IMG/VR virus record: IMGVR_UViG_3300029288_005873
Coordinates: 256,001-320,000 of that record
Reading direction: 5' to 3' (one strand)
Source of the DNA: a virus
Taxonomy: Duplodnaviria; Caudoviricetes
Length of the DNA: 64,000 nt
Shown: positions 1 to 13,382 of the stretch, piece after piece
Layout of the letters: the number at the start of each line of letters is the position of its first letter
Numbering within the stretch: the stretch's first letter is position 1
Made by a program: the position numbers and the translations under genes
Notes under the pieces: model-generated
The model's database searches: none
What the model was told of the DNA's origin: nothing
What the model saw: the letters and a program-made list of their open reading frames with translations, nothing else

Positions 1-2185
1 CCTCACGCTCATTAGGATCCATTTCTGCCAGAAGTTCAATCTCTTCTGCTGTCATTTGGGAGCGTTTCCTTTTCGGACGGTCTTTTTGTTCTTCTTTGAT
101 TTTTTTATCTAGCTTATCCCAATAATCCTCAAAAGCTTTTTCTTCCTCTTCTATCATGTGTGGCTCTAAATCAGAATCATCTATAAATTCCGCACGCTTG
201 GAGATTGGTGGCTCCAACGATGCCAAGATGCCGCGTACACTCTTGCCTTCCATATAGTACTGCTCGATACGTGGGATAAGATATTGGTTCTTCAAGGTAC
301 CAGGTTCATGCCCAACTTTCTTAGCTGCGTCAGCCAGGGCTTTCTTAAAGCGTTCTTTGAGCGCCTTATCCCTTTCCTTGCCTTCTTTAGGAAGCTTGCC
401 TTTGCCATTCTCTTTTAGGGAACGAAGCATTTCCTTGTTGGCATGGAAACCTCTTATATCCTTGGCAGTCACCTTAAATGGGGCAAGATATGAATTTACG
501 TCTTTAGCCGTAATACCAGCCAGAACGCGATCACTTTTCTTTTTATCCTTACAGGCGCGTTTTAGCGCATTAAGAACCTGCTTGGTCTTAACTTCCTTGC
601 TTTGTTTCACTCCAGCTTTGCCCACATATTTAATAGTCGCTTTGCCCTTACCAAACGTTACATGGCGAAGCAGCCAGCCAGTTACTCCATAATGTTTTAG
701 TTCGCTTGCCGATTCTTCATTTCCGATACGTTCATAAGTTTCATCAATGAGAGCAATCGCCAATGCCGAAAGGCGAGTTCGCTCATCATCGGACGAAAGA
801 TCTTTCTTGACCTTAGCGCGCATCTTCTTGAGGGAACTATTAAGCCTCTTTAGACGTTGTTCTTTTTTACGATTACGCGCAGCAATATGCTTTTTATCAT
901 AGAGATAAGTAATATTGCCAGATTCCTCTTTCTTTTTCTCTACATAAGCATGATCCTTTGCTCGTTTGGACAAAGGCTCAGAATATTCTATTGTCGAAGG
1001 TTTGAAAACATTATCAGCAAAGATGAGAGAAACAATTTTTCGCACAGTTTCGCGCCAACGAGATGGATTATCAGTACGAAGCCGATTAAGGGCAGGCGAA
1101 TCTAAAATCATTTTCTTAAGACCTTCGCGACGATCTTGTGAGGGCATGTCAGCCAATTTGGAGGTATAAAGCATGACGATTTCATTCAATCGCGGATAAA
1201 ATTCAATATCACGCAGATGATGCGGAAGCGCAACTCGTTCCTCATCAATCCTCTCTAATTGATCTTTTGAAAGACCCGTCATTGGTATATTTTCCACAGG
1301 TACGACTCCAGTGTAATGACTTCCTGGAATCTTATGCTTGCGAGAAGGTTCACCAATATCACCATATCCAGCCAGTTTTATCTCATCCAAAATTGTTTGA
1401 GCAACATGTGTGGCCTCGTGACGCGCAAGCATCAACACTCTCCGCACATACAAAACAAAACTGTTCATATCAGTTGGCACAAGCCACGATTCTGGAATAA
1501 TAAAATCTAAAACCCAATTTTTCCTAATCCATTTGCCAGTGTATTTAACATCTTGGTCAGGAATAGTGCGTATATGAATCTCTATAGCTGGGAAGGGAGT
1601 TACAATATCGCCAAGAGGACCTACTGTTTCGGAACCCCTCATATGTGGGGGTAACATTTCCAAATACTTCCAATTCGATAAATCCAACTCTACTTCATGA
1701 GAATCAGAAATTTTGGCAAACTTGGCGGCGGCAACTCGCACATCCTCAGGAGCTTCCCCATTTTTCACCAAAGCAGCATAATGCTGAACTAAGAATTTTT
1801 GAAGTGCCTCAGTGAAGACGGGCGGGGGTTCAAAAAGTCCCGCCAGTTTTGGTGGTATCATATCTGGTAGTTCTACCTCATATATTCCTAATGAGCCCTT
1901 AACTGGAAAAGGATCAATTTTACAAATATTAGACAGTTTCCAGGCAAATGCGGATGGGTATATTTCGCATTTTGCTTCTGACTCATCAGCCTTTGTCATT
2001 GGACGGCAATCTATAAGATTCGCTATAGCAAGGGCTTTTCCAGCCGGTTGTATATCTGGCTTAGCGGTTGAGACAATAAGCAAAGGACCACGATATTTGG
2101 TCCCCCATTTACGTGTCTCAATAGTCTTTTCCCCATTGGCAATCATGTTTGCCCAAGGTTGCTTGACTGAAAGAGCCTTTATCAT
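1..2185 (-). CDS. Multidomain protein: ASCH + HExxH zincin-like domain + type IB DNA topoisomerase catalytic domain (3' end truncated by window edge)
   Basis: Absent from the ORF track (no stop inside the window); translated by hand from ATG at 2185 with an in-frame TAA just upstream. N-terminus MIKALSVKQPWANMIANGEKTIETRKW is ASCH-like; RHEATH at ~1406-1420; TopIB pentad YERIGN / YVGKAG / AKDIRGFHAN / VGHEPGTLKNQY with H-to-Y spacing of 9. Confidence 0.85.
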   Translation of the reverse strand, partial: MIKALSVKQPWANMIANGEKTIETRKWGTKYRGPLLIVSTAKPDIQPAGKALAIANLIDCRPMTKADESEAKCEIYPSAFAWKLSNICKIDPFPVKGSLGIYEVELPDMIPPKLAGLFEPPPVFTEALQKFLVQHYAALVKNGEAPEDVRVAAAKFAKISDSHEVELDLSNWKYLEMLPPHMRGSETVGPLGDIVTPFPAIEIHIRTIPDQDVKYTGKWIRKNWVLDFIIPESWLVPTDMNSFVLYVRRVLMLARHEATHVAQTILDEIKLAGYGDIGEPSRKHKIPGSHYTGVVPVENIPMTGLSKDQLERIDEERVALPHHLRDIEFYPRLNEIVMLYTSKLADMPSQDRREGLKKMILDSPALNRLRTDNPSRWRETVRKIVSLIFADNVFKPSTIEYSEPLSKRAKDHAYVEKKKEESGNITYLYDKKHIAARNRKKEQRLKRLNSSLKKMRAKVKKDLSSDDERTRLSALAIALIDETYERIGNEESASELKHYGVTGWLLRHVTFGKGKATIKYVGKAGVKQSKEVKTKQVLNALKRACKDKKKSDRVLAGITAKDVNSYLAPFKVTAKDIRGFHANKEMLRSLKENGKGKLPKEGKERDKALKERFKKALADAAKKVGHEPGTLKNQYLIPRIEQYYMEGKSVRGILASLEPPISKRAEFIDDSDLEPHMIEEEEKAFEDYWDKLDKKIKEEQKDRPKRKRSQMTAEEIELLAEMDPNERE

Positions 2186-4332: not shown

Positions 4333-4623
4333 CTAACAAGTAATTTTTGCGTTAAATTCCGGAGAATCTCCAGTATATGTTGGACAAATATCACCAACAT
4401 ATACAATCTGTGACCATTGTACACCTATAGCCTGGCAAAAAGGACATGTGTCAACATGTGGACCATGATACCTGCCACAACCAGGACACCTCCAAGGAGA
4501 ACGAATATTGTTACACCATGGAGATGCCATTTTCCACCAACCACAAATAGGACAAAAACCAAATATTTGACATTGGTTTCCACAAGTTGGGCATATATAG
4601 TTAATATGATATGTTGTATTCAT
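4333..4623 (-). CDS. small protein with four CxxC motifs (double Zn ribbon)
   Basis: CPTC, CPIC, CPGC, CPFC. Confidence 0.55.
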   Translation of the reverse strand: MNTTYHINYICPTCGNQCQIFGFCPICGWWKMASPWCNNIRSPWRCPGCGRYHGPHVDTCPFCQAIGVQWSQIVYVGDICPTYTGDSPEFNAKITC

Positions 4624-5636
4624 TATTTACTCCGCGAAGAAATGGGAATTGTAACTCGTTTTGACAATGGTAGTGGCAAAGATGCCAATCTCTTACCAGC
4701 ATTACCACTATCTTGTTTCATCACAAAGGGCTGTTTTCGAAGGTGCTTTAACCTATCCACACTTTCTTCAGGTAAGGTTTCGATATAATGCCCGCCACGA
4801 TCTTCAAGAAACCGTTTAAGCGCCTCTTTCTCTTCGTTGGTCCAATCAGATCCTGGTACATTATACATGACAGGTTCCACAAACTTGTGATACTCATATA
4901 GAGCCTTATATGCTTGATCAACTATGCCTGGATAACTTCCTTCCATACTTTTGAGGCGATTAAAAACCTCATCAAGCTGTTCTTTAGTCATATTTCCCAT
5001 ATATGTAGGAAAACCAAACCATGCTCCCCAAGCTTTATGAGGCATACCGAATCTTTCCCATGCTTTCCAAGCATCTTTGAATCCACGATAACTTGCTACA
5101 GCTTCAGATATTGCTGTGCCCACAACAGGCCTGCTTTCTTTTCCAGCCCCAAGACGACCGTATCCCCCAGCTGGCACATTAGGATCATTCTGATAAGTGC
5201 CAACATGACCAAACTCATGTGCTAATTCTCCACTTATTGGTCCACTAGTAATTTTTGGTAAATCTCCAAGACGTGTTAAAAGAAGATCAAAAGCCTCATT
5301 TGCCTTGGCGGGATCCCCTGGGAATAGACGAGGTTGTAGAAGAGCACGATGCTTAACAAAAAAGTCTTTGGGCGCCATTGCGCCCCCATCAGCAGTCTGT
5401 AGGATTTTGAACCACTCTCTACTAGCTGTCGGATAGCCTAGCTTTTTAGCTTCAACATTATAAGCGTTAATGAGTGGATCAGCAAAATCTTCCATAAATC
5501 GTCGAAAATCAAACCCTTTGGCTGCTATTTGAAGCTGACGATAGACCTCACTTGCTCTTTGGCTTCCAAGCTGTGCCTGTTCAAAAGGTGCTGGTTGTTT
5601 CACCAATTCAGGTTCAAATGAAAAGGGTTTTGTCAT
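4623..5636 (-). CDS. zincin-like metallopeptidase domain protein
   Basis: ELAHEFGH with downstream E in ISEAVAS. Start 5636 preferred over 5678 because 5678 abuts a promoter-like motif. Confidence 0.6.
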   Translation of the reverse strand: MTKPFSFEPELVKQPAPFEQAQLGSQRASEVYRQLQIAAKGFDFRRFMEDFADPLINAYNVEAKKLGYPTASREWFKILQTADGGAMAPKDFFVKHRALLQPRLFPGDPAKANEAFDLLLTRLGDLPKITSGPISGELAHEFGHVGTYQNDPNVPAGGYGRLGAGKESRPVVGTAISEAVASYRGFKDAWKAWERFGMPHKAWGAWFGFPTYMGNMTKEQLDEVFNRLKSMEGSYPGIVDQAYKALYEYHKFVEPVMYNVPGSDWTNEEKEALKRFLEDRGGHYIETLPEESVDRLKHLRKQPFVMKQDSGNAGKRLASLPLPLSKRVTIPISSRSK

Positions 5637-5678
5637 TAGTTTTGCCCCAAAGGAAGAATCCTCAAACAAATCTGGCAT

Positions 5679-5694: not shown

Positions 5695-6009
5695 CTACAA
5701 AATCTCAGTCTTTGGGGGTTCGCATTCCTTTTCTGTGGCTTTCAACACTTCCTCAGGTGCTTTAGTGGAACGGAACATTTCGACATCAGGTTGATCAAAC
5801 ATTTTACCAAAAGATGTATCAACCTTTAGACCATTTGTAGGTATAATCTCAAGTTCAATTATTGGAAAAAGTTCTTCTCCATCAAGTTTTATAGATAAGT
5901 TGCGAATTCCACCTAAAATCTTACCATCTAGATATACACGAACATTATTCACATCTGAAGAATCATTTGCCTTAGTTATATACCAGCCTTTACTTGGAAT
6001 TTCCTTCAT
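5695..6009 (-). CDS. hypothetical protein
   Basis: 104-aa ORF, ATGA coupling. Confidence 0.6.
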   Translation of the reverse strand: MKEIPSKGWYITKANDSSDVNNVRVYLDGKILGGIRNLSIKLDGEELFPIIELEIIPTNGLKVDTSFGKMFDQPDVEMFRSTKAPEEVLKATEKECEPPKTEIL

Positions 6010-6617
6010 TTCAATTCTCCTTTTACAAACAACCTAGTCGCAAAACCTTCAACATTGAGAATTTGTTGAGCCTCAATAGGAGGTTCATAAACAAATCGAA
6101 CATTGATTACAAATCTACCATCTGTTGTTCTGCCGAGGTTAATTGCCTCTGGGTTAAATGATTGAAAATATTTTTCAGCAACAACTTTTGCCATTCTAGC
6201 TTTTATAAGCTCTTTCATTCCCTTTTTTCCGATTGACCAAATATGCTCTATCCTACATGTGCGCAACATCTTGCGACACCCAACCAAACCATGCGTGGGA
6301 TCAATAAATTGTTTGCGTTTTGGGTCCCAAACTATAAAATGCCCACCGAAAACTTTTTCCGACCATTCTATAGCAACAAGCGCCGGTTGTCTTTTTGGCA
6401 ATTTCTGTATTTTGTGACACGTTATGCCCAGGCTTTCGATAACATCAATAACGTCATCGGGGAAAAGACCTCCCCTATGGTCGCATTTTGAGAAAAATGG
6501 CAAAATGTCATCATACAATAGCCCCGTGAGCATAGCGGCACAAGCCACTCCACAGTCCCATTTTTTACGTTGCTGTATGAATTCAATTTGTCTCGGTTCG
6601 TGAATAGGAAAAAGCAG
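6006..6617 (-). CDS. C39-like cysteine peptidase plus C-terminal domain; probable CTG start
   Basis: Frame extends upstream of the tracked GTG (6548) to give IQQRKKWDCGVACAAM, then GHFIVWD and FIDP; GGAGGT lies 7 nt before CTG at 6617. Confidence 0.7.
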   Translation of the reverse strand: MLFPIHEPRQIEFIQQRKKWDCGVACAAMLTGLLYDDILPFFSKCDHRGGLFPDDVIDVIESLGITCHKIQKLPKRQPALVAIEWSEKVFGGHFIVWDPKRKQFIDPTHGLVGCRKMLRTCRIEHIWSIGKKGMKELIKARMAKVVAEKYFQSFNPEAINLGRTTDGRFVINVRFVYEPPIEAQQILNVEGFATRLFVKGELK

Positions 6618-6641
6618 CTCCGTGACCTCCGGATCTTGCTC

Positions 6642-7801: not shown

Positions 7802-8194
7802 CTATCCCAACTTTATATGCTTGTGGCGCTGCTTCCAATCTTCGAAAGCTTTCGAATCGCGACCACCTTGTTCATGCGGACCAATGGCAACTTCCTCTGG
7901 CACAACTGCGGCAATATTTTCAGGTTGAGCTGTAACAACCAATGGCTTTTTTGAATTTGTCAAAACCACAATTTTATCTGTGGGTTTTGCATCAGGGAAA
8001 TCCACAATTACTTCAACAGGAATTTGCTCATCTTCAAACATGAGATTAAGTGGATTTGCCAAAGGTGCAAAAACCCGCAAGAGTAATTTGTCTTCAGTAT
8101 CAGCTATGACCGCATTGACAAAACCTGGCACTTCGCGCATCAAATCAAATTTGTGCTTTTGTAGGAACCCTAGAATTTTTTCTTTATCAACCAT
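7802..8194 (-). CDS. hypothetical protein
   Basis: Start MVDKEK after SD GGAGGAG. Confidence 0.55.
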   Translation of the reverse strand: MVDKEKILGFLQKHKFDLMREVPGFVNAVIADTEDKLLLRVFAPLANPLNLMFEDEQIPVEVIVDFPDAKPTDKIVVLTNSKKPLVVTAQPENIAAVVPEEVAIGPHEQGGRDSKAFEDWKQRHKHIKLG

Positions 8195-9341
8195 TTTTCT
8201 CCTCCATGATGTGACGAACAGCCACCAAAGCTGACGCCATAGCTCCAAAAGGACTTTTTACTCTTGAAACACATTCCCCAGCACCATAAAGTCCACAGAA
8301 ATCTGTTCCCATATATGAATTAACTTCAATAGAACCTTCTACACGCATTTCTGGTATGTGAATTGTTGCACATCCAATTAACGATGGTAACATTTTGTCT
8401 AGTTTTAACAAAGCATCGCAAATTGGATGAAATTGATCAATATGTTCGAGGACGCTGTGCCCCTTTACAAAATCAATTCCCCTTTCCCGTTTTACTTTAT
8501 CATTAGATAGCGTATTCACTATGCGAATTAATCTAGCCGCATCTGTAAAATCTTGTATCGGAACACTTGCCATAAAAGTCGTACGTTCGGAGGGTTTTCC
8601 TGGTGCTGAATAGGCAAAAACTGTCATCAAACCCCCATCTTCACGGTCTCCAATAAGAGAATTAATACGCATATCATCAAAAAGAACATTGTCAGATTCT
8701 AGTCTGAGGTCTCCAGCTATTTTGAGAAACGGTTTAACAAGTTTGCTGGGAACCTCAACACGAACTCCTAATTTTGCCTTAGAATTTGAAATTGGAATGC
8801 CAAACGTTGTACTTATTGTGCGTATCCATTCTACAGAATGGCTCCCCGTTGATATTATACATTTCTTTGCTTCCATCCTACCACGATTAGTATGAAGAAC
8901 AAATTTTCCATCATTATAGCTTAGACGATTAACATTGGTGCCAAAAAGTACATCGGCTTTTCCAAGCCTTTTTTGTAAATGTTGTGATAGTTCATATCCA
9001 CATCCATGATTAAGTTGGTAAAATGGCAATGGAACCGTACGAAGTGGCAAGCCTTCTAATGATGCTGATATATGCTGTTCTAGCATTCCACCGTTAGCTT
9101 TGCGACACATGTCAAATATTGCGGCAAAAGCATGGGGATCGGAAAAATCATCTTTTTCAGAATCCGCCCTAGCCATGGAAAACATGGCACGCCCAAACCA
9201 ACCCGACACCAGACTGCGGCGATCTTTTAGACCATGTCCGCGTTCTAGCGCAAGTACATCCAATCCGCCTTCGGCAGCAGCTATGGTAGCCAGCGTACCA
9301 GCCATTCCAGTTCCCACCACGGCAAGATCATAAATCTTCAT
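8187..9341 (-). CDS. FAD-dependent oxidoreductase
   Basis: YDLAVVGTGMAG Rossmann motif, IISTG, and GLYGAGEC C-terminal FAD motif. Confidence 0.75.
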   Translation of the reverse strand: MKIYDLAVVGTGMAGTLATIAAAEGGLDVLALERGHGLKDRRSLVSGWFGRAMFSMARADSEKDDFSDPHAFAAIFDMCRKANGGMLEQHISASLEGLPLRTVPLPFYQLNHGCGYELSQHLQKRLGKADVLFGTNVNRLSYNDGKFVLHTNRGRMEAKKCIISTGSHSVEWIRTISTTFGIPISNSKAKLGVRVEVPSKLVKPFLKIAGDLRLESDNVLFDDMRINSLIGDREDGGLMTVFAYSAPGKPSERTTFMASVPIQDFTDAARLIRIVNTLSNDKVKRERGIDFVKGHSVLEHIDQFHPICDALLKLDKMLPSLIGCATIHIPEMRVEGSIEVNSYMGTDFCGLYGAGECVSRVKSPFGAMASALVAVRHIMEEKNG

Positions 9342-9904
9342 TGGCACTTTTCCGCAATTGTCCTATTGGCCGCCCATACAAAAAGCTTTACAGCCAAACT
9401 TTTTGGAATCGACCACATATATTCTGAACTTGAAATCGTCTCTGCAAAATTTTGCGCACGGGCAATAATCACTGAAGATGGAGTTCCAGATGCTAGAAGT
9501 GCCCTCCAAGATGCCCTATCAGCATCCATTTCTAATAGGGCTCTTGGGAAAGCAAACAATACTGGAAATGGGAAAAGAACATATATAAGCATCATAATAG
9601 GCAAACCGACAAGAGGGTGAATACCAAAACCACAAAAACGAGCCTGTCGGCTATGTCTGCTTTCATGAACAATAACGCGTTCTACAGTTGCCACACTCCA
9701 TGTGGCAGGATAGGCTTGGATATTGCCAATTGTAGTGGCAAATCTAGTTAGAAAATTTTCACGCTTGAAGGCACCAAAACTAACAATGAAAAGGAACCAG
9801 GCGATAATTTTCCAAAATTTACCATCTTTGGAAACAAGCTTTACGGATTTATCAATCTTACGTGCCTCTGCCTGTAACCTTTCCTTGTCTGAAAGCCAAC
9901 TCAT
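9338..9904 (-). CDS. membrane protein with HExxH motif
   Basis: Two hydrophobic segments; VIVHESRH...LEMDA. Confidence 0.55.
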   Translation of the reverse strand: MSWLSDKERLQAEARKIDKSVKLVSKDGKFWKIIAWFLFIVSFGAFKRENFLTRFATTIGNIQAYPATWSVATVERVIVHESRHSRQARFCGFGIHPLVGLPIMMLIYVLFPFPVLFAFPRALLEMDADRASWRALLASGTPSSVIIARAQNFAETISSSEYMWSIPKSLAVKLFVWAANRTIAEKCQ

Positions 9905-10095
9905 TTAAGATCTCCTTTAGTGAGCCAATTTTTGATGGCTTGAACTTTTCCTTGATCTATTACCACATTTGTAGAGGTTATTTTTGAACCCGATGGGTGC
10001 ATTGCTTGAAGACGTATGTGAAGCTCACCTCCCTCAAGGAGTTCCAAAAAAAGCTGACCGCCGCCTTCAAACTCGAATTCCAGCGTATTTTCCAT
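9901..10095 (-). CDS. hypothetical protein
   Basis: 64-aa ORF, SD AGGAGG. Confidence 0.55.
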   Translation of the reverse strand: MENTLEFEFEGGGQLFLELLEGGELHIRLQAMHPSGSKITSTNVVIDQGKVQAIKNWLTKGDLK

Positions 10096-10206
10096 TCTAG
10101 CCTCCTAAAAACAATATGCTGAAGTTTGAAAACTGGTCGACAATTACGGGGCAATTTTCCATAAACCAAATAGCATATGGTGTCTTCATAAATTCCTGAA
10201 CAGTTT

Positions 10207-10214
10207 TATTGATA
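10207..10214 (-). promoter_or_regulatory. TATCAATA promoter-like core
   Basis: Intergenic octamer copy downstream of thyX. Confidence 0.4.
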
Positions 10215-10227
10215 AAATATGTTATTT

Positions 10228-11700
10228 TCATAGAATAGCCTGTTTCCTCTTTTGGAAATCATACTTTCCACACGCCATTAGCATGACAAGTGGACAAGTT
10301 TTACGAGCGGCAGCCACCATTTTATCAGCTACATTACGGATGTCCCATTGTGCATGAGAGTCTTGGCGCAGTCTACTAAAGTGATAAAGCTCTCTAGCAT
10401 TCATTTTTACCAAAACACGACGCCTATGGGCTTGCGTCAACACATATGTGGCAGCATCTCGTAGCCCATGTGTTAAAAGTTTTCCATAAAAAACAGAGCT
10501 ACGATCCATTATTTCTTTGAATTTTTGACCAAATCCAGCTTCAAGCACGGTTGGAGGTACTGTAAAACCAAGAGAAATATTATAATCCTGCGGCAAAATA
10601 GTTGCCATTCTATGCCGTTTTAATTGTGCAAAACAGGAAGCAGAAACTATCAATTCAAAACGAAATTCTGCCAATTCGAAAGCCCTTGGCACAGCGTCCC
10701 ATTCCTGCATAGGACCAAATAACGCTTTAAGAATCCTATTTTTCTGTTTGTAATTATTACGCACCCAAATTTTCTCGCATTGTTTAGAATCCATGCCACA
10801 ATGCTCATACAATAGAGCTCCCATAACTTTCTTTTCAGCATCTTTATCCCAATTCAAAAGACATACGGGTTCTTTATTTGGTTTTGTACTGTATTTTGCC
10901 ATATCAAAACTTTCTTCGGACAATTTTCTAAGTTCTGAAACAGCAGTCAATTGTTCAATTGTTGGATCAAGATACCTAAGCAAAGATGGGGTTACATTAC
11001 GCCCCTCATCACGAAGCAACTTAGCTACTGATTTGGCTTCGTCCAGAGGGTGTATAAGCAAACGTTTAATCATATGTTCGAGATTGCGAGCATTACAAGT
11101 CATGCCCAATTGACCCTCGACCGCTAATGATGTAACATACCTTGCGTCTTCTTTCGCCTTTCCTTCAAAAGCTTTTCGCATATCCTTGTCGGCATTTGGA
11201 TTCTTAGCAAGAAGATAGGCAAGGATTCCTTCATATATTTCACAATAAGCAGCATATTGCTCTGCCATCAAAGCTCTAAATTCAACCTCAAAACCAGCTT
11301 CAACAATTTCCCTAGGAACTACAAATTCCTCACCAAGTTGCGTATATCTTTGACTTTTTTCAGTATAGCTACAAAGGCGAGCATGTTCTATAGCTTCAAT
11401 CACTAGACGCGAAACGCCCATAATATCAAAATTGAGAGCCGCATGTTCGGCAATTGACTCATGACCCATACCAAACACTATTTGTTTATTTGAGGCGCGT
11501 GCTTTAGCCACATCTTCTATGGCAGCTGCGCGCAATTCGTCAACCGGTCTTGGATCACGACTTATTCTTGCATATGCGGCTGAAATGGTTTCAGGAGTCA
11601 TAGCATCAGCGCGACTATCAGGACCCCCTTCGGTCATGAAAAATTTAGCATCTTCGAGAATGTCGATGTCGGCATTGAAGCCAGCCAGCTTAATCTTCAT
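10228..11700 (-). CDS. thyX: FAD-dependent thymidylate synthase, two-domain form
   Basis: GHESIAEH, SYTEKSQRY, EDARY, QLKRHR, HAQWDIR motifs; duplicated ThyX fold. Confidence 0.85.
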   Translation of the reverse strand: MKIKLAGFNADIDILEDAKFFMTEGGPDSRADAMTPETISAAYARISRDPRPVDELRAAAIEDVAKARASNKQIVFGMGHESIAEHAALNFDIMGVSRLVIEAIEHARLCSYTEKSQRYTQLGEEFVVPREIVEAGFEVEFRALMAEQYAAYCEIYEGILAYLLAKNPNADKDMRKAFEGKAKEDARYVTSLAVEGQLGMTCNARNLEHMIKRLLIHPLDEAKSVAKLLRDEGRNVTPSLLRYLDPTIEQLTAVSELRKLSEESFDMAKYSTKPNKEPVCLLNWDKDAEKKVMGALLYEHCGMDSKQCEKIWVRNNYKQKNRILKALFGPMQEWDAVPRAFELAEFRFELIVSASCFAQLKRHRMATILPQDYNISLGFTVPPTVLEAGFGQKFKEIMDRSSVFYGKLLTHGLRDAATYVLTQAHRRRVLVKMNARELYHFSRLRQDSHAQWDIRNVADKMVAAARKTCPLVMLMACGKYDFQKRKQAIL

Positions 11701-12712
11701 TTGTCGTTCTCCTCCAATCACCATTTAGGGCATCCCTCATAACTGCTTCAGTTTTAGGTCCCCAAATCCCATCAGGTACCAAACCATGCTCTTTCTGGAA
11801 AGTCTGTAGCGCATATCTAGTCTTCGGACCAAAATCTCCATCAAGAGGACCGGGATCGTATCCGAGCTTTTTCAAAGCATTTTGGCGTTCCAGCCAAGTT
11901 CCAAGTTCCTGCTCGTCTATATTTTCCGCTATTTCTTTGTTAACAACAACAGTTCCAATTCCTTTAAGAAAGCGATCAAAATCAAAAGCAATTGGATCAA
12001 TCTTATCCGTTGTTACTTGAAAATGACAAATAAAACCCTGATGTTTTTTTGGTTCCGCAAGTTGTGTCTTAATAATTTCGCCTTTTTCTCTTGCAAAATC
12101 AGGTTTAATTAGCGGAAAAATCTCAACAAGCCCTTTTGCCAATTTTATCAAAGCATTGTATTGGGCGTCAGAATAGTCAAAACCCTTAAGTTTCATTCCA
12201 TGTATTGTGTCCAACTTAACTTTACGCGGACCCACTTTATATTTTTTCTGATGAGCCTCATCATAAGCATCGGGATATTGACCAGCGGCAGCGCGTGAAT
12301 CAATCTCTATACCTACAGACATGGCATTATTGCCACCAATGTGAAATGCGCGTTCGCGAACATCAAGACATTGGTAGATGGTTCCGTCATCATCACATAT
12401 AAAATGTACAGAAAGACCGCGTTGTTGTAGAGTCTCAAATGTATCCTTAGACCTATACAGTCCAGAATGGTGTAGACCAAATTGCCATACGATTTTCTTA
12501 AGCTTTGCTAGATCTGGAGTTCCACCCAATGCTAATCTGGATTTATAGCGCTTTCCTTTTACCACCTCCATCTTACCTGTTTTTCGATTTTGAGTTTCAT
12601 ACGCAGTAGTATCGTAAGCGCTAAAGCCTCCGGGCTCATTCCACAAAACAACGCGCGTTCCAATGTCATATTTCTTATCACATACAACAATACATGTATT
12701 ACTAGACATCAT
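11690..12712 (-). CDS. N-acetylmuramoyl-L-alanine amidase with C-terminal peptidoglycan-binding domain (putative endolysin)
   Basis: LHHSG, SVHF, GIEI, ICHF...KIDP; LGYDPGPLDGDFGPKT...FQKEHGLVPDGIWGPKT PG-binding domain. Confidence 0.85.
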   Translation of the reverse strand: MMSSNTCIVVCDKKYDIGTRVVLWNEPGGFSAYDTTAYETQNRKTGKMEVVKGKRYKSRLALGGTPDLAKLKKIVWQFGLHHSGLYRSKDTFETLQQRGLSVHFICDDDGTIYQCLDVRERAFHIGGNNAMSVGIEIDSRAAAGQYPDAYDEAHQKKYKVGPRKVKLDTIHGMKLKGFDYSDAQYNALIKLAKGLVEIFPLIKPDFAREKGEIIKTQLAEPKKHQGFICHFQVTTDKIDPIAFDFDRFLKGIGTVVVNKEIAENIDEQELGTWLERQNALKKLGYDPGPLDGDFGPKTRYALQTFQKEHGLVPDGIWGPKTEAVMRDALNGDWRRTTNED

Positions 12713-13382
12713 CTTCCCCCACATCTTGCTCTATTCCATTAGTCCACAAACGCTTAGAAATATGGTTTATAACTTCAGCATGAATACTTTCTTTCGTCTT
12801 TGGAGGTGCGGCATCTATTAGAACAATACGCCCTTGTTCAGCCAAACTTCCAGCCAATTTCAAAAATCCTTGTCTAACACGTAGGTGGAAATCCATAGCT
12901 TCACGCTCCAAACGATCACCCCCACCCGTCTTTGCTTTGGCACGCTCTAGCCCTACCTCTGGAGGAATATCAAAAATAAAAGTAAGATCAGGCATAAGTC
13001 CACCAGTAACGAATTCAAGCATAGGATCTAGTTTACTTCGACCTATGCCACGACTTACCCCTTGGTAAACTCTGGTTGAGTCAACATACCGATCACATAC
13101 TACATGAAGACCCTTTGTTAGACTTGGTCTTATAAGCTTTTCCACATGTTGAGCCCGATCTGCAAGGAATAGCATAAGTTCAGTCGTGGGCGCTAAATCT
13201 TTTGATGGATCAAGTAGAAGCTCTCTAATTTTTACGCACTCTGACAAATGCGGAGAACCCGGTTCTTTTGTAAGAATGTGTTGAATGTTCAGTTTTGACA
13301 TCCATTGCGAGACAAGTTCAATCTGTGTTGTCTTGCCAGCACCTTCGCCTCCCTCAAAACTCATGAACAAAGGTTTACTCAT
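12702..13382 (-). CDS. tmk: thymidylate kinase
   Basis: FEGGEGAGKTTQ P-loop, TKEPG, DRAQH, CDRYVDS, PDLT. Confidence 0.92.
   Translation of the reverse strand: MSKPLFMSFEGGEGAGKTTQIELVSQWMSKLNIQHILTKEPGSPHLSECVKIRELLLDPSKDLAPTTELMLFLADRAQHVEKLIRPSLTKGLHVVCDRYVDSTRVYQGVSRGIGRSKLDPMLEFVTGGLMPDLTFIFDIPPEVGLERAKAKTGGGDRLEREAMDFHLRVRQGFLKLAGSLAEQGRIVLIDAAPPKTKESIHAEVINHISKRLWTNGIEQDVGEDDV

Follow-up and report, generated by a model that had tools for sequence, protein, structure and literature searches.

What does a single reading frame encode that joins an ASCH domain, a metalloprotease-like HExxH domain and a type IB topoisomerase (TopIB) and runs off the edge of a huge-phage sequence, and could its product be carried in the virion? 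The frame lies at the left end of the window, the whole 64,000-nucleotide stretch analyzed here (G000:C1:256001–320000), which is part of a 441,904-bp virus record from an uncultured phage. A preliminary description of the window had not recognized the architecture, had compared it with the "polyvalent" proteins of phages and had proposed a polyprotein that is packaged, injected and perhaps self-processing.

An intact gene encoding several enzyme modules

In the window, positions 2..2185 of the minus strand form an open frame of 728 codons whose left edge is still open, so that the claim of a single frame of at least 728 codons was borne out. Leftward extension of the contig, one of the checks that had been suggested, added the remaining 488 codons, including a second, paralogous HExxH domain, and gave an ORF of 1216 amino acids (Table 1). 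All 1216 codons are free of stops, and a putative ribosome-binding site, AGAGGG, lies 9 nt upstream of the ATG. From N to C terminus, the modules are ASCH, HExxH-1, TopIB, a charged spacer, a small α/β module (termed mid) and HExxH-2. Relatives that match these modules at 50–83% identity each show the frame to be real: the gene is intact and codes for a modular multi-enzyme protein whose family occurs in huge phages.

Table 1. Coordinates of the 1216-aa gene, its modules and tags, and of three head genes of the same genome (G000)
Feature	Residues	Position	Strand	Remark
Full ORF	1–1216	L001 35..3685 = G000 254535–258185	minus	1216 aa
ASCH domain	1–107	window 1865..2185	minus	Pfam, PHROG, PDB; N-terminal, no preceding tag
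Degenerate tag PPKLAG	111		minus	precedes HExxH-1
HExxH copy 1	111–403	window 977..1855	minus	family alignment, AF2 model
Tag 1, PLSKRA	404–409	window 959..976	minus	between HExxH-1 and TopIB
TopIB catalytic domain	410–659	window 209..958	minus	Pfam PF01028, PDB, pentad
TopIB pentad codons	R486, K523, R578, H626, Y635	window 728–730, 617–619, 452–454, 308–310, 281–283	minus	
Tag 2, PISKRA	660–665	window 191..208	minus	immediately C-terminal to TopIB
Charged spacer cassette	666–738	starts window 1..190, continues leftward	minus	73 residues
Tag 3, PISRHA	739–744	left of window	minus	between spacer and mid module
Mid small α/β module	about 745–860	left of window	minus	model pLDDT 81.6
Degenerate tag LPKLERQA	864	left of window	minus	precedes HExxH-2
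HExxH copy 2	about 870–1190	left of window	minus	paralogous to copy 1
Portal gene		G000 405518–408679		
Head (prohead) protease-scaffold gene		G000 382372–386241		
MCP gene		G000 372770–373795		

Profile searches confirmed both of the domains that the preliminary description had named after known families, each above its curated cut-off. The ASCH domain was matched by Pfam PF04266 at residues 5–76 (E 1.5e-9, 38.9 bits versus a cut-off of 21.2) and its region by phrog_3193 (E 5.6e-26), and the human ASC-1 ASCH domain was found as a PDB sequence match (E about 5e-6). The module contains GEKTIETR, which we take to fit the GxKxxExR signature of ASCH. TopIB was matched by PF01028 (Topoisom_I) at residues 435–633 (E 2.4e-26, 93 bits versus a cut-off of 23.7), and a genome-wide profile search (97.2 bits) showed it to be the sole TopIB of the genome. 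Its PDB sequence matches include the TopIB of Deinococcus radiodurans (2f4q) and that of variola virus (2h7f, E 1.3e-9), the latter being the nearest solved structure by sequence. The R-K-R-H-Y pentad is intact, with its tyrosine codon where it had been placed, and aligns with the vaccinia/variola positions; all 52 of the 52 relatives keep it, one of them with Asn instead of the His. The module is predicted from its sequence to be a DNA-relaxing enzyme with an intact active site. The PDB alignments begin at chain residues 63–69, indicating that the module has no counterpart of the poxvirus N-terminal domain of ~60 residues. A GyrB-type topoisomerase II gene is also encoded, and TopIB is therefore not the only topoisomerase of the genome.

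The HExxH domains, the spacer and the mid module

The two HExxH copies of the protein are paralogous, the result of a domain duplication, and both carry the motif: HEATH at residues 256–260, as originally read from the window, and HEMVH at residues 1017–1021. Conserved residues of HExxH-1 are W172, H256-E257-x-x-H260, Q263, G278, P280, H322, R325 and E328; the equivalents in HExxH-2 are H1017-E1018-x-x-H1021, Q1024, H1084, R1087 and E1090. Alignments of 7 and 11 sequences show little or no variation in the motif. The family is rare, with 20 representatives at E ≤ 1e-3 among the 1.84 billion (1.84e9) sequences searched. In an AF2 model of HExxH-1 (pLDDT 85.8), strands at model residues 92–99, 108–111 and 116–122 are followed by a helix (131–161) bearing H147-E148-x-x-H151, and the invariant E219 (E328/E1090 of the protein), a candidate third metal ligand of the gluzincin type, starts a further helix at 217–236; H213 is invariant as well. 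As modeled, the order of motifs is zincin-like, with a helix-borne HExxH after a small β-sheet.

No significant match to the HExxH domain was found in Pfam, NCBIfam (0), PDB or fold searches. A profile search of the family alignment against the PDB gave 0 matches at E ≤ 10, and Foldseek of the model against the PDB gave nothing at E ≤ 0.001, the best row being selecase (E 0.86). A wide VIA search aligned C-terminal helices only (Z ≤ 6.4), and VIA on the Foldseek list gave weak whole-domain rows for the HExxH oxygenase ChlB (Z 4.3), IrrE (Z 3.4) and anthrax LF (Z 3.3). One homologue had a weak Pfam match to Tox-MPTase3 (E 0.032). Because the Foldseek and VIA rows are weak or partial, we call the domain neither a peptidase nor a new fold; it is a well-defined new protein family without a Pfam model, on which no literature was found.

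Between residues 660 and 738, 27 of 79 residues are D or E and 14 of 79 are K or R, and the charged spacer is kept in P0005 and P0008 at 56–58% identity. For the mid module, Foldseek and VIA gave no convincing fold match: an ADF/gelsolin-class best row in Foldseek (E 5e-3, TM about 0.35) and VIA matches with a best Z of 4.7 were treated as non-specific. A search of the ESM Atlas with residues 739–865 returned no usable match, and a homologue search found a single, shorter homologue.

A peptide tag and the genomic context of the relatives

The same five modules are found in differing orders in relatives (P0003–P0010, P0015 and P0017), in which SET, PolyA_pol+HD, 2H, PAP2, SAP and SNF2 occur as further partners. 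Cassettes of the family comprise TopIB, ASCH, the new HExxH domain, SET and 2H, together with LigD-type phosphoesterases, a CCA-type nucleotidyltransferase with HD and the small α/β module, joined by disordered linkers that bear a conserved short peptide tag. The architecture that had gone unrecognized is therefore singular in its exact domain order, which was found in this record only (a cluster of one member), but its modules are drawn from a large family that shuffles them.

The consensus of the tag, P-[LIF]-S-[KR]-[RH]-A, is intact at three module borders of the 1216-aa protein and degenerate at two more. In its strict form, the tag occurs in 10 copies in the genome, compared with a mean of 0.07 and a maximum of 2 in 300 shuffles. 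The remaining copies lie either near the 1216-aa gene or in repair-enzyme genes between the portal and prohead protease genes, where the bearers are a PTP phosphatase, a ferritin-like protein, LigD-PE+2H and ligase+PrimPol. Three proteins of the phage carry the tag at residues 4–7, i.e. in short N-terminal leaders, and tags also occur internally and C-terminally. At tag 1, the pLDDT of the model drops below 50 (model residues 289–301), and tags lie in such low-pLDDT linkers; in relatives they are found at module junctions, and an identical tag precedes TopIB at the corresponding site in P0005 and P0007. The tag was not found in the MCP, portal or protease-scaffold of the genome, and for this reason a general head-maturation site was rejected as its sole role. 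A C39-like peptidase, syntenic here and in the related loci L046 and L053, was retained only as a low-probability tag protease because the tag has no Gly-Gly, after which C39 enzymes normally cut.

Genomic context was counted over 34 distinct IMG/VR TopIB ORFs and their loci. A portal gene lies upstream of TopIB in 16 of the 34 and a protease gene downstream in 15; TopIB is beside both in 10 loci and beside either in 21. Fusions link the two kinds of locus: L013 and L030 have TopIB joined to PE/2H and PTP modules within the head block, and in L017 the mid module is found inside a ligase–DJ-1 polyprotein. The 1216-aa gene itself is separated from the head block by ~130 kb; it follows the tail genes and adjoins genes for endolysin, ThyX and an FAD oxidoreductase; a block of amidase, ThyX, FAD oxidoreductase and C39-like peptidase is conserved in this genome, L046 and L053. 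Here, as in two relatives, the TopIB gene has left the head block for a second locus behind tail and lysis genes, and its tags have been retained. In L040, L046 and L053, an HExxH gene directly follows the TopIB gene. The SET gene downstream has SET as its sole Pfam domain at E ≤ 0.001.

When cultured phages with TopIB were sought by tblastn, the sole match was one uncultured record of 485 kb, and ASCH alone was found in many small phages. Cultured phage G gave no TopIB match by tblastn, and its genome paper makes no mention of TopIB (PMC12484599). Searches of the available literature found no description of the family and no paper joining topoisomerase IB with huge phages, and a search on type IB topoisomerase in bacteriophage virions found nothing relevant.

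Proposed capsid cargo, rival explanations and known systems

On balance, we lean towards the view that the tagged multi-enzyme protein is a capsid cargo polyprotein of polyvalent type that is loaded, cut and injected. The tags would direct the 1216-aa protein into the prohead and probably also have it cut, with the prohead protease or the HExxH modules doing the cutting. The capsid would then contain enzymes, some free and some perhaps still fused in part, which would enter the host together with the DNA. Inside the cell, TopIB would relax the incoming genome of 442 kb, as is thought for the poxvirus virion enzyme, and would act together with the head-block kit of tagged ligase, phosphoesterase and polymerase; ASCH may serve as a nucleic-acid-binding or processing module. 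The packaging and injection proposed at the outset are consistent with a tag that the protein has in common with the enzyme genes between portal and protease, and with the 21 of 34 related loci in which TopIB adjoins the portal gene, the protease gene or both, but agree less well with the distance of the gene from the head block here. The self-processing suggested there would fall to an HExxH domain for which no significant match to a peptidase family or fold was found. Also counted against capsid cargo were the degenerate state of the tags ahead of both HExxH copies, an untagged ASCH, an HExxH domain with no significant peptidase match and a phage G with no TopIB match.

The position of the gene would also suit a cytoplasmic enzyme. 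In that case the protein would not be packaged; it would act on nucleic acids in replication, in transcription or late in infection, and its tags would be linker motifs read outside the head, by a phage processing peptidase (e.g. the syntenic C39-like one) or as the scaffold of an intracellular complex. Both the location within the amidase/ThyX/FAD oxidoreductase/C39-like block, here and in L046 and L053, and the untagged core head proteins favor such a role. We nevertheless consider it unlikely, given that genes between portal and protease bear the same tag, that the TopIB gene stays at portal or protease in most relatives and that the separate topoisomerase II gene is of the GyrB type that usually serves replication.

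A functional coupling between HExxH and TopIB, whereby the HExxH domains would be SprT/Wss1/Spartan-like proteases clearing trapped TopIB–DNA covalent complexes rather than general processing enzymes or independent cargo, is in our estimate decidedly improbable. The two are fused in 6 of the 20 representatives (P0003, P0007, P0017, P0054, P0068 and the query), a count that is biased because most loci were found via TopIB, and HExxH is the next gene after TopIB in L040, L046 and L053; yet many HExxH members stand alone or are fused to SET or ParB_N without TopIB, the order of modules varies, and no profile or fold match of the HExxH domain to SprT/WLM was found. Least credible by far is the idea that unrelated genes were joined, whether in a chimeric assembly or in a pseudogene undergoing decay. 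A domain order confined to one record would fit it, but some of the junctions are seen again within single ORFs from independent assemblies (HExxH–TopIB in P0007, P0015 and P0017; TopIB–mid in P0004), and the stop-free frame, the putative ribosome-binding site and catalytic residues that are all intact speak against it.

Precedents exist for parts of the proposed capsid cargo arrangement. Poxvirus TopIB is packaged in the virion and is thought to serve the incoming genome. The phage module shares its pentad but, unlike the poxvirus enzyme, has no N-terminal DNA-binding domain and is one part of a 1216-aa protein, whose packaging we infer. Encapsulin cargo-loading peptides offer an analogy only: short terminal peptides bring unrelated enzymes, including ferritin-like proteins, into an HK97-fold shell, although the sequence motif is a different one and the shell is a nanocompartment rather than a phage capsid. 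In T4, the internal proteins IPI-III have an N-terminal capsid-targeting sequence, and ejection proteins of the giant phages phiKZ and SPN3US have propeptides cut by the prohead protease (PMC10052503). Head-block genes (in the relatives) and short N-terminal leaders are features shared with these head proteins, and targeting followed by proteolytic release would be expected. The tag, however, has nothing in common with the Glu-P1 sites that T4, phiKZ and SPN3US use, and it occurs internally and C-terminally as well; the putative cargo is an enzyme kit, several members of which are of DNA/RNA repair type.

Polyvalent proteins of phages and conjugative elements are described as variable strings of unrelated enzymatic and nucleic-acid-binding domains, often with one or more interspersed HExxH domains or processing metallopeptidases, and are proposed to be delivered with DNA and processed (Iyer et al. 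2017, PMC5512222). By that account the comparison in the preliminary description holds, as the 1216-aa protein has at least two unrelated domains and architectures vary among its relatives. TopIB and ASCH are both unmentioned in the text of that article, and a conserved hexapeptide tag at module borders is not a theme of its available passages. The polyvalent MPTase-PolyVal model (PF18818) had no match genome-wide at E ≤ 0.01 and none in the 1216-aa protein at E ≤ 1. Stand-alone TopIB is reported in the jumbo phages phiRSL1, Lu11, PaBG and Motura (Iyer et al. [quoted passage not shown]

A broader proposal, which we put forward tentatively and rate somewhat below an even chance, is that this huge-phage lineage loads its capsids with cargo by means of a system that is both general and programmable, of which the 1216-aa protein would be a relocated member. 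A tag in two dialects would flank swappable cassettes, a head component would load and cut them, and a repair and takeover kit would be injected. The dialects in question are [LIF]-S-[KR]-R-A and R-V-A-[AS]-x-aromatic; the cassettes would be TopIB, LigD ligase, phosphoesterase, PrimPol, 2H, a CCA-type enzyme, SET, a ferritin-like protein, DJ-1 and the new HExxH domain, and the kit delivered by the virion would be one customized for DNA/RNA repair and takeover.

The chemistry of the HExxH domain, peptidase or other, is directly testable. Should enzymes indeed be loaded and released in the capsid by way of the tags, these phages would bring a relaxing enzyme and a nick- and gap-repair kit along with a genome of ~0.4 Mb. 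This would be a bacterial-virus parallel of the poxvirus virion topoisomerase and could explain how injected genomes of great length become transcription-ready and protected. The tag would then also offer an easy means of bringing foreign proteins into the heads of large phages.

The modular TopIB protein and its TopIB and ASCH domains

The TopIB protein under study has 1216 residues and is encoded on a virus record of 441,904 bp, of which the window covers positions 256001-320000. Its frame occupies 728 codons of the minus strand inside the window and is open at the left edge, and the preliminary description, which had reported a frame of at least this length running off the edge, was confirmed when the complete ORF of 1216 codons was found in the whole record. 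The part outside the window, invisible to that description, makes up 40% of the protein. The gene is intact, and a putative ribosome-binding site (AGAGGG) lies 9 nt 5' of its ATG. The order of its parts and the surrounding genes are listed in the table.

Features of the TopIB protein and of the virus record (G000, coordinates on the whole record; L001 and L003, stretches of the same record)
Feature	Location	Strand	Remarks
ASCH	residues 1-107		
Degenerate tag	residue 111		PPKLAG
HExxH domain 1	residues 111-403		HEATH at 256-260
Tag	residues 404-409		PLSKRA
TopIB	residues 410-659		
Tag	residues 660-665		PISKRA
Charged spacer	residues 666-738		
Tag	residues 739-744		PISRHA
Mid module	about residues 745-860		small alpha/beta
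Degenerate tag	residue 864		LPKLERQA
HExxH domain 2	about residues 870-1190		HEMVH at 1017-1021
83-aa ORF	G000 249504-249755 (L003 5504-5755)	minus	start MKTFDIPISKRA; last residues PLSTRA before stop
SET protein, 374 aa	G000 253427-254551 (L003 9427-10551)	minus	C-terminal SET, E 3.6e-7
TopIB protein	G000 254535-258185 (L001 35..3685); in window 2..2185	minus	
351-aa ORF	window 4623-5678	minus	C-terminal tag-related motifs PLSKRV, PISSRS, then K and stop
C39-like cysteine peptidase	window 6006-6620	minus	20.7 bits from CTG start; Pfam cut-off 22
Amidase with PG-binding domain (endolysin-like), ThyX, FAD oxidoreductase	window 8187-12724	minus	upstream of TopIB protein
MCP	G000 372770-373795		
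Head-maturation protease	G000 382372-386241		1289 aa
Portal	G000 405518-408679		
Large terminase	G000 408692-410521		

Pfam bore out the ASCH and TopIB domains of the preliminary description: ASCH scored 38.9 bits over residues 5-76 (cut-off 21.2), and Topoisom_I scored 93 bits over residues 435-633 (cut-off 23.7). The R-K-R-H-Y pentad is intact, as had been claimed (R486, K523, R578, H626 and Y635), and its tyrosine codon falls at window positions 281-283, exactly as given there. The pentad is kept in 52 of 52 relatives, with a single His-to-Asn replacement, and the TopIB module is under purifying selection. By sequence, the nearest solved structures were variola TopIB (2h7f, E 1.3e-9), archaeal-type TopIB (6z01) and D. 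radiodurans TopIB (2f4q), and human ASC-1 ASCH domains were among those nearest to the ASCH part. Because alignments to the solved TopIB enzymes begin at their chain residues 63-69, the N-terminal DNA-binding domain present in pox and bacterial TopIB is absent here. The genome has one TopIB copy and also a GyrB-type topoisomerase II gene, whose domain was located at G000 12393-12863 (stretch L055) within a 643-aa frame (E 1e-49); a profile search of the genome with PF00521 and PF01131 gave no match. The lack of a detected PF00521 (GyrA/ParC) partner for the GyrB-type gene agrees with PMC7824862, which describes a divergent phage topoisomerase of two subunits.

The HExxH and mid modules

The two HExxH copies, the only ones in the genome, are paralogous: they could be aligned directly (BLASTP E 0.002), recruited the same homologues and have invariant columns in common, namely the W of DLSxWKY, HExxHxxQ, GxP and HxLRDxEF. 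When 1.84 billion representative proteins were searched with copy 1, only 20 were recovered at E<=1e-3. Homologues include stand-alone proteins of 270-310 aa as well as fusions to SET or ParB_N, and in many family members 100-200 aa are inserted behind the first helix. Searches of Pfam, NCBIfam and PDB sequence profiles gave no match for the domain; one homologue had a weak match to Tox-MPTase3 (E 0.032). PF18818, the model for the peptidase of polyvalent proteins, had no match across the whole genome. An AlphaFold model from 11 sequences was confident (pLDDT 85.8, pTM 0.84) and followed the zincin order, in which an N-terminal helix leads into three strands, a long HExxH-bearing helix and a later helix starting at the invariant Glu. 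Foldseek with this model gave nothing significant (best row selecase, E 0.86), and VIA gave Z values of at most 6.4, over C-terminal helices only and not significant; weak whole-domain rows were ChlB HExxH oxygenase (Z 4.3), IrrE (Z 3.4) and anthrax lethal factor (Z 3.3). As the fold searches were not significant, the domain is termed zincin-like by its motif and modelled topology; no peptidase family is assigned, and chemistry other than that of a peptidase is possible. The mid-module model was also confident (pLDDT 81.6), with no convincing fold match in Foldseek (best row E 5e-3, TM about 0.35) or VIA (best Z 4.7) and no match in an ESM Atlas search.

A non-random tag at module borders

The strict hexapeptide tag, P-[LIF]-S-[KR]-[RH]-A, was counted over the 589 called ORFs of the genome and found 10 times, versus a mean of 0.07 (maximum 2) in 300 shuffles. 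Three copies are in the TopIB protein; the other bearers are a PTP-type phosphatase and an ATP-ligase + PrimPol protein (tag at residue 4 in each), a ferritin-like protein and a LigD-phosphoesterase + 2H protein (three copies). The border tag is strongly non-random and common to the TopIB protein and enzyme genes of the head block. Tags are located in stretches of pLDDT <50 at the ends of both the HExxH and mid models, and in relatives they coincide with the borders of BLAST-defined modules; the related protein P0003 has tags at residues 258, 474, 765 and 889 and modules at 7-264, 477-777 and 888-1032. Sites that are degenerate in the TopIB protein carry intact tags in relatives, PLSKRAGTFEPPP ahead of the HExxH domain of P0003 and PISRRAAGLMDIPP in the related protein P0005. 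In more distant relatives, a second dialect, R-V-A-[AS]-x-[YFW], directly flanks TopIB on both sides.

Tag-related motifs also end the 351-aa ORF, which has no Pfam match and is located on the stretch that separates the C39-like gene from the gene for the TopIB protein. A separate tag scan, outside the 589-ORF set, yielded the 83-aa ORF, a minimal unit bounded by tags at both ends, about 5 kb downstream of the TopIB protein and some 6.2-6.5 kb beyond the left edge of the window. Its natural C-terminus on Ala hints that cutting, if any, would occur after the Ala of the tag.

Genomic position and proposed role

The TopIB module was found in about 50 large proteins (700-1900 aa, 38-83% identity) of a 5.8-billion-protein collection, and in none from cultured phages of GenBank. 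Modules are shuffled among these relatives: the five of the TopIB protein are reordered, and further fusion partners include SET, PolyA_pol/CCA-type plus HD, 2H, PAP2, SAP and SNF2 helicase. An IMG/VR scan gave 41 loci, among which 34 TopIB ORFs are distinct. For 16 of the 34, a portal gene is encoded on the same strand within roughly 6 kb upstream, and for 15 a protease gene is located downstream; both are present for 10 and at least one for 21. By default, the family occupies the interval from portal to head protease, which in the studied phage holds the remaining tagged enzyme genes. In the closest head blocks (L013 and L030), TopIB is fused to the phosphoesterase/2H and PTP modules that are separate head-block genes in the studied phage, and in locus L017 the mid module is within a ligase-DJ-1 polyprotein. 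At the usual protease position of three loci (L014 14100-18524, L032 14225-16981 and L036 14919-17603), the gene matches portal, not protease: the match covers residues about 150-550, in the N-terminal half of the studied phage's 1053-aa portal protein. One module therefore appears to be common to portal and scaffold-like head proteins.

A second conserved locus, in the studied phage, L046 and L053, consists of amidase, ThyX, FAD oxidoreductase and C39-like peptidase followed by the TopIB protein, the first three forming the same block on the 318-kb L053 contig. Directly after the TopIB protein comes a separate HExxH gene in L046 and L053 and the SET gene in the studied phage; some relatives (L053/L005, P0006-P0008) have SET and TopIB in one fused protein. 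In the SET protein of the studied phage, Pfam gave no M14 carboxypeptidase match at E<=0.001. The C39-like gene (28.9 bits for the orthologue in L053) accompanies the relocated TopIB protein in all three loci, and its product is therefore a candidate processing enzyme. Within the relocated locus of L046 (5363-5761), distant from any head block, an ORF of 132 aa resembles the major capsid protein in two pieces (42% identity) and may be a capsid-gene fragment brought along in the move.

We propose that the tags would direct the TopIB protein into the prohead, where they would probably be cut, and that the enzymes would travel along with the DNA. Poxviruses carry TopIB in the virion, which such a role would fit. 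It would also fit the polyvalent-protein concept (PMC5512222) and those ejection proteins of giant phages that the prohead protease cleaves (PMC10052503). The case for packaging is weakened by the distance of the gene from the head block in the studied phage and by the absence of the tag from core head proteins, none being found in the MCP, portal or protease-scaffold of this genome. The main competing explanation is that the protein works as a multi-enzyme in the cytoplasm and that some other factor reads its tags; a minor one is that HExxH and TopIB are functionally coupled in the manner of SprT/Wss1. That the fusion is an assembly artefact is very unlikely, since some module junctions recur in independent assemblies.

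Our literature search found no paper connecting TopIB with huge phages. The phage G genome paper (PMC12484599) does not mention a topoisomerase, the text of the 2017 polyvalent-protein paper contains neither TopIB nor ASCH, and the 2021 jumbo-phage survey (PMC7824862) mentions stand-alone TopIB in a few phages. The TopIB protein would be a variant of polyvalent or ejection proteins; the present analysis contributes a count of genomic context across the family, distinguishes two dialects of the tag, defines the HExxH family and the duplication of its domain, and shows that the gene has been relocated in this sub-lineage.
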